Shown: piece by piece, positions 54,998-59,794 of the stretch
Layout of the letters: each line of letters starts with the position of its first letter
Position numbering within the stretch: the first letter of the stretch is position 1
Source: an uncultured bacterium
Lineage (GTDB): Bacteria; Chloroflexota; UBA5177; JANWHV01
DNA length: 64,000 bases
Direction of reading: 5' to 3'
Assembly: GCA_963729625.1 (NCBI GenBank)
Contig: CAVSOU010000011.1
Location: 448,001 to 512,000 of the forward strand
The notes under the pieces: generated by a model
Databases searched by the model: none
What the model was told of the DNA's origin: nothing
The model's input: the letters and a program-made list of their open reading frames with translations, nothing else
Made by a program: the position numbers and the translations under genes

Positions 54998-57900
54998 TTG
55001 AAGGGAAAAACTGTTCGTGTTGCCGTGTTGGCGGCGTTGCTCCCCACCACAGGCTTGACGCTCGCATTCTCGTTGCCAGGCATCAGTACTCCACCAACAC
55101 TTGACGGTCGTGTTGTACTGGTCTCAAGAGGCACCATTACCACCACGCTGACGCCGTCCGGTCAGGCCGCAAACGTGACGACCTACTCGTTGAATTTCTC
55201 GGCCTCGGGCACGGTCAAGTCAGTCAACGTCGTACCGGGTCAGTCGGTCAAGAAAGGCCAGGTTCTTGCTTCAATTGACGATCCATCGTTGCAGCTATCG
55301 CTGATCAGCGATCGGAACGCGCTGAACAATGCTCAGCTGGCTCTGGCAAAGCAACTCGCTCCCCCGAATCCGAACTCACTTGTCCAGTCCCAAGCGTCGC
55401 TCGATCAGGCTCAATCCAAGCTGGCCGCTATGAAGGCAGGCGGCACCGCCGCCTCCATCGCGCAGGCCCGCGCCAACGTGGACTCCGCCAAAGCCAAGCT
55501 CGTGGCGCTGCAATCGGGCACGGCCTCCGCGATCATCTCTGCACAGGCCAGTCTTGATTCCGTTCAACAGAAGCTGGCCGCGATGGAAGCCGGAGGCACC
55601 GCCTCCAGCATCGCCCAGGCGGAAACGACGCTTGCTACGGCCCAGGCCAAGCTGGCAGCCATGCAGACCGGCGGTACGTCCGCGAGCGTCACGCAGGCGC
55701 GTCAAGCGCTCGACGAAGCCAAGACGAAGCTTGCGGTGATGAAGAAAGGCGGCACCCCCGCCAGCATCGCCCAGGCCCGGTCGTCCCTCGAACAGGCCCA
55801 GCTCAAGCTTGCCACAATGAAGAAGGGTGGTACGCCTGTCAGCATTGCGCAGGCCAGGGCTGCACTCGACCAGGCGCAGCTCAAGCTGGCGACTATGGAG
55901 AAGGGTGGCACGTCGACCAGCGTCACCCAGGCCAGGGCTGCGCTCGATCAGGCCCAGCTCAAGCTGGCCACGATGCTCAAGGGCGGTACCGCGGCAAGCA
56001 TCGCCCAGGCCAAGTCATCGCTCGACCAAGCCCAGCTCAAGCTGGCCACGATGCTCAAGGGCGGTACCGCGACCAGCATCGCCCAGGCCAGAGCTTCGCT
56101 CAACCAGGCGCAGCTCAAGCTGGCCACGATGCTCAAGGGCGGTACCGCGACCAGCATAACCCAGGCCAAAGCATCGCTCGATCAGGCGCAGCTCAAGCTG
56201 GCCACGATGCTCAAGGGCGGTACCACGACCAGCGTAGCCCAGGCCAAAGCATCGCTCGACCAGGCACAGCTCAAGCTGGCCACGATGCTCAAGGGCGGTA
56301 CCACGACCAGCATCGCCCAGGCCAGGGCGTCACTCGACCAGGCACAGCTCAAGCTGGCGACCATGAAACAGGGCGGTACCCCGGCCAGCATTGCCCAAGC
56401 CAAGGCATCGCTCGAACAGGCCCAGATCAAGCTGGCGACCATGAAGAAGGGCGGAACGCCGGCCAGCATTGCCCAGGCCAAGGCATCGCTCGAACAGGCC
56501 CAGATCAAGCTGGCGACCATGAAGAAGGGCGGCACCCCCGCCAGTATTGCCCAGGCCAAGGCATCGCTCGAACAAGCGCAGATCAAGCTGGCTTCCATGA
56601 AGCAGGGCGGCACCCCCGCCAGCATCGCCCAGGCCAAGGCATCGTTGCAACAGGCGCAGATCAAGCTCAACGTCATGCAGACGCCTCCTGATCCGCACAC
56701 CGTCGTAGCGGCAAAGGCCAACCTGGACTCAGCGATCCTGAAGCTGACGGCCCTCCAGGCTCCGCCGAACCCGCAGACCGTCGCCCAGGCACAGGCCAGC
56801 CTGGACTCCGCCAAGCAGAAGCTCATCGCCCTGCAAGCCGCTCCTGACCAGAACACCCTTGCTCAGCTTCAGGCGAGCCTGGACTCCGCCAAGCAGAAGC
56901 TCATTGCCCTGCAAGCGCCCGTCAATGCAAACACTCTGGCCTCCGCCCAGGCGAGCCTCGATAGCGCAAAGCAGAACCTGGCCGCGCTCTCCAACGCCGC
57001 GTCGTCGGCAACCGTCGCCTCCGACCAGGCAGGAGTGACACAGGCTCAGAACAATCTGAGCAGCGCGACGACTCCATCAGCTGCGTCGCTCGCCCAGGCG
57101 AATGCAACCCTTCTCGCGGCTCGAAATAAGCTGCAAGTGGATCAGGTCGCTCTATCGCTTCTCGTGCCACCCAACACAAGCGCCATCACCAATCCCACCG
57201 CGCTGCAGACCGCGACGAATACGTATCTGCAAAACCAAGCGCAGGATGAGGCGAATATCGCGAACGACGAGGCCAGCGTCGCGAGTGCGACGGCAGCGTA
57301 TACCGCGCTGACCAACCCGAGCGCCGGCGCGCTGACCCTGGCCCAGCAGCAGTTGACCGCCGCCCAGGCCAAGCTGGCAGCCGACCAGCAGCCAACGCCA
57401 AGCTCGACGGACCTGGCAAAAGCGCAGGACGCCGTCACCCAAGCCCAGGCGTCGCTCGCCAACACGCAGGCCGGCACCACGACGCCGTCCGATATTGCCT
57501 CCGCGCAGGATGCCATCACCTCCGCGCAGGCCTCGCTCAACGCGGCGACCGCCCCGCCGAAGGCTACGGACCTGGCCACGGCTCAGGACGCTCTTGTTTC
57601 CGCGGAGGCCTCGCTCACGACTGCGACGGCACCGCCGGCAGCTACCGACATCGCCTCCGCCCGGGACGCGATCAACTCCGCGAACGCCGCGGTGTATACG
57701 GCGGAGCATCCATACACTGCGCAAGACATCGCGACACAGCAGTCCACGGTGACAAGCGCCGAGGCAGCATACAAGAACGCCCTGCAACCCAACTCGGCGT
57801 CGGATATCGCCACACAGGAACAAGCGGTCAAGACCGCGCAGGTGGCCTATCAGAATGCGCTGCAGCCTAACTCCGCGTCGGACATCGCCACGCAAGAGCA

Positions 57901-59794
57901 AGCGGTCAAGAGCGCGCAAGTAGCCTATCAGAATGCGCTGCAGCCTAACTCGGCGTCGGACATCGCCACGCAAGAGCAAGCGGTCAAGAGCGCGCAAGTA
58001 GCCTATCAGAATGCGCTGCAGCCTAACTCGGCGTCGGACATCGCCTCGCAGGAGCAGGCCGTAGCCGGCGCCAAGGCTGCCTACCAAAACGCCCTGCAGC
58101 CCAACTCTCCGTCCGACATTGCCACCCAGGAGCAGGCCGTGGCCAGCGCCAAGGCCGCCTACCAGAATGCTTTACAGCCTAACTCGGCGTCGGACATCGC
58201 CACCCAAGAGCAAGCGGTCAAGAGCGCGCAGGCCGGCTACCAGAATGCCCTGCAGCCCAACTCGCCATCCGACATCGCCACGCAGGAACAAGCCGTGGCC
58301 AGCGCCAAGGCCGCCTACCAGAATGCCCAGCAGCCTAACTCGCCATCCGACATCGCCACGCAGGAGCAAGTGGTAGCCAGCGCCAAGGCCGCCTACCAGA
58401 ACGCCTCGCAGCCCAACGCAGCGTCGGACATCGCCACACAGGAGCAAGCGGTCAAGAGTGCGCAGGCCGCCTATCAGAATGCGCTGCAACCCAACTCGCC
58501 TTCCGACATCGCCACGCAAGAGCAAGCGGTCAAGAGCGCGCAAGCCGCCTATCAGAACGCCCTGCAGCCCAACTCGGCGTCGGATATCGCCACGCAGGAA
58601 CAGGCCGTGGCCAGCGCGCAAGCCGCCTATCAGAACGCCCTGCAGCCCAATGCGGCCTCCGACATTCGACAGGCGCAGGACGCGGTAACCAGCGCGGAGG
58701 CGGCGTTGGCATCTGCCAAGCAGCCGAACTCTGCCTCGGACATTACCCAGCAGAAGCTCGCAGTACAGAGTGCGCAGGCGGCCTTGGCTGCAGCCAGGCA
58801 ACCGAACACCACATCGGATATCCAGCAAGCGCGAGATTCGGTCACCTCGCAGCAACAGGCGCTCATCACTGCCCAGCATCCCGGCACCGCGACGGATATT
58901 CAGCAAGCTCAGGATTCGTTGATCAGCGCGCAGGCAGCGCTCGACTCGGCCGTCCAACCGAACACCGCGCAGGATATTGCCCAGCAACAAGATGCCGTGA
59001 AGAGCGCGCAGGCGGCGCTGCAGCTGGCGCTTCATCCCTACACCGCGCAAGACATCGCCATCTCGCAGGCGAGCGTCACGGAGGCGCAGCAGTCATTGAA
59101 GGCTGACCAAGCGCTGTTCGCCAGTGAAACGGATATCGTGGCGCCGAGCGCCGGGGTGGTCCAGGTGGTGAACCTTTCGCCCGGACAGGCGTCGTCCAGC
59201 GCCAGCAGTAGCAGTAGCAGCACCAGCACCAGCACCGCGGCCATCCAGATGGCCGATACCAAGGGTCTTGTGGTGACGGCAAGCATCCCTGAAGCCCAGA
59301 TTGGCAGCATACAGCTTGGCGATCCGGTGGCGATGGTCTTCAACGCGTTCCCCAACAGAACGCTCGTCGGCATCGTCAACAGCCTGCCCTTCCAGGCGAC
59401 CACCACGTCGAACGTTACCACCTACCCGATCAAGGTTTCTCTGACGGGGAACCTCAAAGGCATTACGGCCGGCATGACCGCGAACATGACCATTGTCACG
59501 GCGGAGGTGACCAACACGATCGAGGTGCCCACCGCGGCGATTGTCGGCACCGGCACCCGCAGCTTTGTCCGCACACTCGATAAGACGAATAACGAGGTGA
59601 TAACGCCCGTCCAGACGGGAATCAGCGACACAACCTTCACGCAAATCGTCAGCGGCTTGAACGTTGGCGACCGGATCGTCGTACCGACCACCAGCGGCTC
59701 CACCACGACGGGTACCGGCGCGGCCCGCGGCTTCGGTGGCGGCGGCGGCTTCGGCGGCGGAGGCTTCGGCGGCGCCGTACGGATTGGCGGCTAA
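54998..59794 (+). CDS. giant efflux membrane-fusion (periplasmic adaptor) protein with a repeat-expanded alpha-hairpin
   Basis: N-terminal anchor; lipoyl halves [28 protein letters not shown] and [18 protein letters not shown] flank about 1280 aa of helical repeats; C-terminal barrel/membrane-proximal motifs [14 protein letters not shown] and [26 protein letters not shown] with a TTG start. Confidence 0.9.
55748..56683 (+). repeat. 12 x 78-bp tandem repeat (26 aa, [26 protein letters not shown]), ascending hairpin limb
   Basis: Counted from the translation and checked on the DNA; more diverged units extend on both sides. Confidence 0.9.
57710..58645 (+). repeat. 12 x 78-bp tandem repeat (26 aa, [26 protein letters not shown]), descending hairpin limb
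   Basis: Counted from the translation and checked on the DNA; five diverged units lie on each side. Confidence 0.9.

Follow-up and report, generated by a model that had tools for sequence, protein, structure and literature searches.

The window, a stretch of 64,000 nucleotides of contig CAVSOU010000011.1 from an uncultured Chloroflexota bacterium, encodes a 1598-residue adaptor protein in which ~1280 residues of repeats separate the two halves of a lipoyl domain, where the adaptor family carries an α-helical hairpin. This protein is a membrane-fusion (adaptor) protein of the MacA/YknX type and belongs to a MacB-type ATP-binding cassette (ABC) exporter. We propose, with a probability of roughly 0.72, that the repeats form a giant segmented hairpin whose limbs are equal because they close the lipoyl domain, that units are gained and lost in compensated steps, and that the hairpins build a long tube. 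We regard the insert as an extreme version of the known adaptor hairpin, built of modules and dynamic in evolution. Since the repeats are inserted between the lipoyl halves, ascending and descending limbs are apt names for the two series of units. The gene is composed of the following features.

54998..59794, + strand: membrane-fusion (periplasmic adaptor) gene, 1598 residues (open reading frame and translation; TTG start as listed, stop codon included)
55190..55279, + strand: N-terminal half of the split lipoyl domain, residues 65-94 (Pfam Biotin_lipoyl_2)
55283..57076, + strand: ascending limb, residues 96-693, 23 units of 26 residues, one early unit having 25 (translation in rows of 26; matches of a unit hidden Markov model, HMM, spaced 26 residues)
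55751..56686, + strand: ascending central array, residues 252-563, 11 homogeneous units and 1 transitional unit (Tandem Repeats Finder, rows of 26, unit HMM)
57077..57316, + strand: hairpin tip of 80 residues, 694-773, with a predicted turn at about residues 721-732 (tip motif conserved in orthologues; loop in the AlphaFold2 fragment)
57317..59110, + strand: descending limb, residues 774-1371, 23 units of 26 residues (rows of 26; unit HMM matches)
57707..58642, + strand: descending central array, residues 904-1215, 1 transitional unit and 11 homogeneous units (Tandem Repeats Finder, rows of 26, unit HMM)
59111..59686, + strand: C-terminal lipoyl half, putative β-barrel and membrane-proximal domain, residues 1372-1563 (HlyD_3 at residues 1380-1485, HlyD_D23 at residues 1307-1463, TIGR01730)
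59705..59791, + strand: Gly/Phe-rich C-terminal tail with GGFGGGG repeats (translation; 15-18-bp tandem repeats at 59727-59774)

Tandem Repeats Finder detected two main 78-bp arrays sharing one open frame, at 55738-56667 (11.9 copies, 86% matches, score 1034) and at 57774-58665 (11.4 copies, 83% matches, score 993), adjoined by weaker 78-bp arrays. The original prediction, made from the letters of the window, had described two 78-bp arrays with matching unit counts per limb, and this was reproduced by printing the translation in rows of 26. The ascending limb is composed of one basal, five diverged, twelve similar and five diverged units, and the descending limb of five diverged, twelve similar, five diverged and one basal unit. 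The tip-most unit in each set of twelve is transitional and more diverged, and the central-array counts given below leave out this one unit per limb. The earlier coordinates were good to one codon, the register being shifted by one residue, and the view that the arrays lie ~1 kb apart in one gene and form the two limbs of one hairpin is supported. The description of the units as near-identical holds at the protein level but not at the DNA level, where 1-29 of the 78 positions differ, many of them synonymously. Summed over all unit pairs, the synonymous and non-synonymous differences were 399 and 398 in the ascending array, and 547 and 311 in the descending array. Given that the synonymous differences equal or exceed the non-synonymous ones, the arrays are not brand new and the protein sequence of the units has been maintained. 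By reading, units of both types carry hydrophobic residues at 3-4-3-4 spacing across ~21 residues, followed by a Gly/Pro-containing boundary, which is KGGTP or PPDP in the ascending limb and QPNS or HPYT in the descending limb.

Searches of related genomes and metagenomes retrieved eight more proteins that were full-length or could be reconstructed, as well as three partial ones. Limb lengths were measured from three conserved anchors, located where the first lipoyl half ends, at the tip Tyr and where the second lipoyl half starts; in L039 the tip anchor was placed by hand from the tip sequence, as the script found none. The unit HMMs were built from the window units, and the resulting counts are independent of the hairpin midpoint. 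The values below are given as ascending and descending.

Window: limbs 645/637 residues; unit HMM matches 21/22; central arrays 11:11
G001a: limbs 567/558 residues; unit HMM matches 19/19; central arrays 8:8
G001b: central arrays 8:8 (second copy in G001, frameshifted, without an adjacent ATPase)
L039: limbs 542/531 residues; unit HMM matches 18/17; central arrays 10:10
G002: limbs 488/479 residues; unit HMM matches 15/16; central arrays 5:5
G008: limbs 290/293 residues; unit HMM matches 8/8; central arrays 0:0
G013: limbs 290/293 residues; unit HMM matches 8/8; central arrays 0:0
L038: limbs 428/347 residues; unit HMM matches 13/9; central arrays 3:1

The central-array counts were balanced in seven of the eight full-length proteins, at five different values. 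The comparison proposed with the original prediction, of unit counts in orthologues of differing total length, thus came out equal in 7/8. As compared to the window protein, the alignment gaps in the ascending and descending limbs were 78 and 78 residues in G001a, 156 and 156 in G002, and 340 and 339 in both G008 and G013. In L039, two tip-proximal framework units are missing from each limb, at positions that mirror each other in the alignment. The basal and tip-proximal framework units are recognisably orthologous among the proteins and conserved across the class, which is represented by 21 genomes in the collection used, and the variable part is the central array. The number of helices per limb ranges from 11 to 24 among close relatives, with the balance kept. 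By eye, the central units of both limbs look more alike within than between genomes, and therefore each lineage expanded or homogenised its arrays on its own, and the arrays still ended balanced. Five balanced sizes are hard to obtain from uncorrelated arrays. Two partial records, G004 (ascending limb only, running to the contig end) and L041 (descending limb only, from another sample), hold 17 and 17 strong units; they come from different genomes and were left uncounted.

In long antiparallel coiled-coil arms, the two strands must match in length. We explain the equal counts in the same manner, because the lipoyl halves must meet and the limbs therefore return to the same point. The original prediction had taken the equality as a sign of selection for register, that is, of a molecular ruler; the register is indeed kept in the relatives, but the equality itself follows from the family fold. 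In the proposed course of events, only proteins with equal unit numbers would fold cleanly. Slippage or unequal recombination would alter one array by one 78-bp unit, the alike central units would tolerate a transient one-unit slip that is felt only near the tip, and the fit would be restored by another event, in the array 1 kb away. By analogy with the hexamers of MacA and of the pneumococcal adaptor Spr0693, six hairpins could then assemble above the pump into a long tube or stalk, which would reach through a thick wall or sheath. The extended length, calculated from helix length at ~3.5-4 nm per module, would be roughly 85-100 nm in the window protein and ~40 nm in the shortest orthologues, as compared to 5.6 nm for the Spr0693 barrel.

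The age of the units bears on this course of events. The youngest neighbours in the ascending array, at residues 460 and 486, are 3 nt apart, and with the limbs paired from the base they face the youngest pair of the descending array, at residues 982 and 956, which are 1 nt apart. These young facing pairs suggest two compensating events close in time. We took the youth of a unit as the distance to its nearest relative in its own array, and correlated the two limbs in mirror order.

Window: r 0.75, permutation p 0.001
G001b: r 0.70, permutation p 0.036
G001a: r 0.48, permutation p 0.117
L039: r 0.02, permutation p 0.472
G002: r -0.46, permutation p 0.836

The summed p was 0.04, a value that overstates the significance, as the permutations disregard the similarity of neighbours. 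In the three closest proteins the mirroring of sub-variants is suggestive, and in the two others there is none. A Mantel test of the unit-distance matrices gave r=0.54 in mirror order vs ~0 in direct order with the transitional unit included, and was set aside as firm evidence, since r dropped to 0.21 (p=0.078) without the transitional unit, no better than with a one-unit shift. QAQIKL units start at residues 460, 486, 512 and 538, and AQVAYQ units at residues 930, 956 and 982. The idea that these two sub-variants face each other holds for three of the four QAQIKL units in the window, but not in G001a or G001b; in G001a, the QAQIKL units lie opposite units without Val. We also rejected the facing Ile/Val pair as a contact: both residues fall, by reading, at heptad position f, and the pair is missing in G001a and G001b.

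The limbs had also been described as charge-complementary. This is true of the window protein, in which the charges sum to +57/-24 over 21 ascending units and to +21/-48 over 22 descending ones (net +33 and -27), but the pattern is lineage-specific. The net charges of the ascending and descending limbs are +21 and -36 in G001a, +19 and -6 in G002, -4 and -7 in L039, -1 and -21 in L038, +1 and -19 in G008, and +2 and -11 in G013. An acidic descending limb is the rule (weak in G002 and L039), and a basic ascending limb occurs only in the genus of the window.

In the adaptor, two Pfam models exceeded their cut-offs, HlyD_3 with 41.4 bits (cut-off 22.2) and Biotin_lipoyl_2 with 34.9 bits (cut-off 29.8), while HlyD_D23, at residues 1307-1463, scored 26.6 bits, under its cut-off of 30, and the MacA equivalog model gave 22.6 against a 342-bit cut-off. 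A hydrophobic stretch at about residues 7-26, before the first lipoyl half, is read as a putative membrane anchor. The two over-cut-off matches, together with the superposition of a low-confidence model of an orthologue, show a lipoyl domain split by a helical insert. This AlphaFold2 model, of a 921-residue orthologue, has 11 helices of ~22 residues, a turn at 382-389 and 11 more helices, with a break of 3-6 residues at each unit boundary. It superposed on MexA (1vf7_K; Z 9.2, root-mean-square deviation 3.0 Å over 107 residues) and on Spr0693 (5xu0_C; Z 9.0, 2.3 Å over 107 residues), in both cases over the model range 69..702, which covers the lipoyl halves and the hairpin base. The best Foldseek match was MacA (5nik_D, E 3.6e-6). 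The tip of the model (331-445) aligned to the antiparallel receptor-binding hairpins of colicins E3 and E9 (Z 8.5-9.1), and strands were predicted at 745-881, in the region of the putative β-barrel and membrane-proximal domain, with a predicted local distance difference test (pLDDT) score mostly of 50-60. A second model, of window residues 434-1033, had the same segmented pattern and a turn at fragment residues 288-299; the tip-flanking helices are its sole well-supported stretch, with a block-mean pLDDT of 64-91. The hairpin is thus predicted to be segmented, each module comprising a ~22-residue helix (three heptads) and a 3-6-residue Gly/Pro-containing break, and the breaks of the two limbs would fall opposite each other. 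A two-chain complex prediction of ascending residues 434-563 with descending residues 904-1033 scored 0.20 vs a mark of 0.32, a result that speaks neither for pairing nor against it. The hairpin reading is founded on family knowledge, lipoyl closure and the tip, rather than on contacts along the limbs.

Several points weigh against the giant-hairpin reading. The best NCBIfam model, TIGR01730 (RND_mfp), scored 82.9 bits, under its cut-off of 94.9, and at this sub-cut-off score aligned residues 1284-1563 to profile positions 23-308 of 322. Both AlphaFold2 models are of low confidence, with a mean pLDDT of 53.8 for the orthologue and 52.7 for the window fragment, and predicted template modelling scores of 0.24 and 0.26. 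The Z values of about 9 lie in a range that, according to the structure-search tool, is common for helical models. We infer the antiparallel pairing along the full hairpin length. L038, on a metagenome contig, is unbalanced by ~3 units and has no ABC genes downstream; its arrays may have been collapsed in assembly, the copy may be decaying, or the imbalance may be tolerated. The genomes compared are few in number and kin to one another, so that the equal counts do not amount to eight independent trials. In public sequencing runs, the best run contained 0.17 of the sampled words, and the pieces found inside the arrays were of at most 384 nt, none of them bridging an array. The hexamer, the extended length, the order of events and the function of length are likewise inferred.

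The neighbouring genes agree with an exporter adaptor. The following features lie downstream.

59794..60636, + strand: MacB/LolD-type ABC ATPase (PF00005, 112.1 bits, 4e-32; its start overlaps the adaptor stop)
60633..61967, + strand: MacB-type permease, MacB_PCD and FtsX (PF12704, 133.4 bits, 1.7e-38; PF02687, 76.1 bits, 3.1e-21; both over cut-offs)
61987..63114, + strand: membrane-anchored Gly/Thr-rich protein, of uncertain membership in the system (translation; no Pfam match)

The adaptor thus has a MacB-type (type VII) ABC partner made of a permease with MacB_PCD and FtsX and a separate ABC ATPase. The best NCBIfam match of the ATPase is the ATPase part of MacB (1.6e-84), under the equivalog cut-off, and the order of adaptor, ATPase and permease is conserved in six of the eight related loci examined. 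As for the Gly/Thr-rich protein, a weak homologue follows the permease in L039 only (34.7% identity over 245 residues). The window adaptor is the only TIGR01730 match in its genome. No match to TolC (PF02321) or Omp85/BamA (PF01103) was found in this genome, which is 87.47% complete, so that both are to be read as not found rather than absent; the same profile searches were positive in 7/14 control genomes. The RLS motif at the hairpin tip mediates TolC docking in MacA, AcrA and HlyD (PMC3391258). This motif (RxxxLxxxxxxS) is missing from the tip region of the window adaptor, residues 694-800, and the sole match of the pattern in the protein is at residue 7, in the N-terminal anchor. The host appears single-membraned. 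As neither TolC nor BamA was found, the envelope that the tube or stalk would cross probably has a single membrane.

With no TolC match in the genome and no RLS motif at the tip, the closest described system in kind is the MacAB-like pump Spr0693-0694-0695 of Streptococcus pneumoniae. The report on Spr0693 (PDB 5XU0; PMC5768738) describes a hexameric nanotube with a 56-Å helical barrel, and proposes that the tube carries substrate from the membrane across the inner wall space of the Gram-positive cell. In both systems, an adaptor with a hairpin, a lipoyl domain and a β-barrel, the last being putative in the window adaptor, is encoded beside a MacB-type transporter split into ATPase and permease, and the cell has no outer membrane or, for the host of the window, appears to have none. 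However, the Spr0693 barrel is 56 Å high, whereas the window limbs have ~640 residues each, in 23 modules with regular helix breaks. A PDB sequence search with the window adaptor gave no significant Spr0693 match, the only hits being a putative MacA (4dk0, E 7e-4) and the entry 4l8j (E 1.2e-3). E. coli MacA of MacAB-TolC (PDB 5NIK, 3FPP) has the domain order predicted for the window adaptor and a partner transporter of the same kind, but it docks on TolC through the RLS tip motif, which is missing from the tip of the window adaptor. According to a comparative study, adaptor hairpins vary in length as heptads are gained or lost in matching fashion in the two helices (Symmons et al. 2015, PMC4446572). 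Similarly, the two window limbs change length together; the step, however, is not a heptad but a 26-residue module with a helix break, and the modules stand in tandem DNA arrays that were expanded separately in each lineage. The arms of SMC/MukB, the dynein stalk and the colicin hairpins, which are among the structural matches of the helical part, are antiparallel coiled coils as well, but they belong to unrelated families, are not recent tandem repeats and are not transport adaptors.

These comparisons raise the question of what the length does. One alternative takes the arrays for a tunable molecular ruler, in which the number of unit pairs is selected to match the thickness of the wall or sheath and the central arrays are the adjusting device. 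The wide variation among close relatives with the balance kept speaks for it, as does the fact that only the central arrays and a small number of tip-proximal units change, with the basal and tip framework conserved. The wall-spanning role proposed for the Spr0693 tube (PMC5768738) and the fact that this is the only detectable adaptor in its genome point in the same direction. On the other hand, the length variation could be neutral drift in a tolerated range. The two copies in G001, both 8:8 with differing unit sequences, fit either view. We therefore regard a selected ruler as possible but doubtful.

The opposite alternative is that the equality is a passive result of the fold combined with neutral repeat turnover, the hairpin being flexible or folded back at its Gly/Pro joints and having no length-dependent role. 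Both limbs have a helix break every 26 residues, the middle of both models has low pLDDT, and the hairpin of CusB is folded back as a four-helix bundle, according to the comparative study (PMC4446572). The span between the lipoyl halves in 109 complete relatives, among which the window protein occurs twice and is the longest, also forms a broad continuum of 61-1286 residues. However, the synonymous and non-synonymous counts given above show unit sequences that are maintained rather than decaying, and the framework units are conserved across the class, so that we consider a length without any role rather unlikely.

An assembly artefact, in which 78-bp unit counts are unreliable and the equality is accidental or made by the assembler, is improbable. 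It is favoured by the short-read contigs from public runs that break inside the arrays, by the imbalance of L038, and by the fragmentation of some relatives (G002 in ~720 contigs, G004 in ~650). By contrast, seven assemblies are balanced at five values, all of them in frame. L040, a metagenome record separate from L039 whose frame reaches the contig end in the C-terminal domain, agrees with L039 in having 18 ascending and 17 descending unit matches. Moreover, the assemblies of G000 (the genome of the window), G001, G008 and G013 consist of 3-21 contigs each, hinting at long-read data, and the units differ enough for placement (mostly 5-25 of 78 nt). A linear α-solenoid made of two repeat families in series, which the helix breaks at each unit and the motif pattern common to ascending and descending units (by reading) might recall, is very improbable, given that the insert sits between lipoyl halves that are assembled in the orthologue model, that the two unit types co-vary exactly in 7/8 proteins, which a solenoid would not require, and that the solved family members all have antiparallel hairpins at this position according to two sources (PMC4446572, PMC5768738).

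For the giant segmented hairpin, we tentatively suggest, while holding it to be less than probable, that it serves as a length-adjustable conduit of paired modules. Each step would add one helix and joint per limb, a second duplication would follow quickly, and the reach, from ~40 to ~100 nm, would be set in each lineage for its wall or sheath. If true, no longer adaptor conduit would be known, and one gene would offer a natural case in which two separate tandem arrays expanded together by compensation. Two arrays 1 kb apart that are held to equal copy number by the fold make a clean natural example, and the lineage-specific expansions at five balanced sizes render the evolutionary path testable, through unbalanced intermediates and the speed of compensation. 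The adaptors of bacteria without an outer membrane are poorly understood, and a hairpin that exceeds the usual length more than tenfold, in the one adaptor detected in the genome, argues for a role other than TolC docking. Helical hairpins of programmable length could be engineered from the module itself, a defined block with three heptads and a Gly/Pro joint on both strands.

The size of the protein is unusual among its relatives. With the C-terminal 305 residues as the query, a full HMMER search across 1.84 billion representatives returned 21,612 relatives at E<=0.001, and the best 150 of these were all of 817 residues or shorter, many of them fragments; the window adaptor is several-fold larger. 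Word-indexed protein searches with the whole protein and with its C-terminal 227 residues returned no orthologues, but other long adaptors instead. Among the 109 complete relatives, the ascending and descending unit HMMs fail to separate the limbs outside the orthologue clade. In the open-access literature that we searched, no paper dealt with adaptor hairpins that are giant or built from repeats, nor with proteins of this kind in Chloroflexota. A 716-residue open reading frame of a Chloroflexota metagenome-assembled genome (L037) has the same 26-residue module with Pro-rich boundaries, GPRPE in the ascending and HPYT in the descending direction, in ~6+5 units. As this relative is distant, the module is older and wider than the orthologue clade. 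Seven adaptors of 882-1075 residues retrieved with the C-terminal domain (P0166-P0171 and P0173) carry fibronectin type III and related domains (PF00041, PF16656) and not long hairpins, which is a different route of enlarging the adaptor family.

The second copy in G001 (L022, G001:C8) has its frame broken once in the descending limb, giving frames of 829 and 661 residues, and the permease follows directly, with no ATPase match between adaptor and permease. This paralogue may be decaying, its break may be a sequencing error, or it may belong to a second strain, as G001 is listed with ~10% contamination. In L038, what follows the unbalanced adaptor, at 8703-9892, is a gene for a 251-residue protein that contains Cys and looks secreted, after which another lipoyl-like adaptor gene begins. 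In the window, the protein at 61987-63114 has GGQGGTGATGGQ-type Gly/Thr repeats and a Gly-rich tail resembling that of the adaptor. The upstream genes at 42382-52325 are of the housekeeping kind (a dynamin-family GTPase, ParA/ParB, a NUDIX protein, an M24 peptidase and a MinD/CpaE-like ATPase), and no candidate cargo or biosynthetic gene was seen among them. The divergent gene upstream of the adaptor (52767-54491, - strand) encodes a 574-residue DUF5666 protein, and a DUF5666 gene also lies beside G001a.

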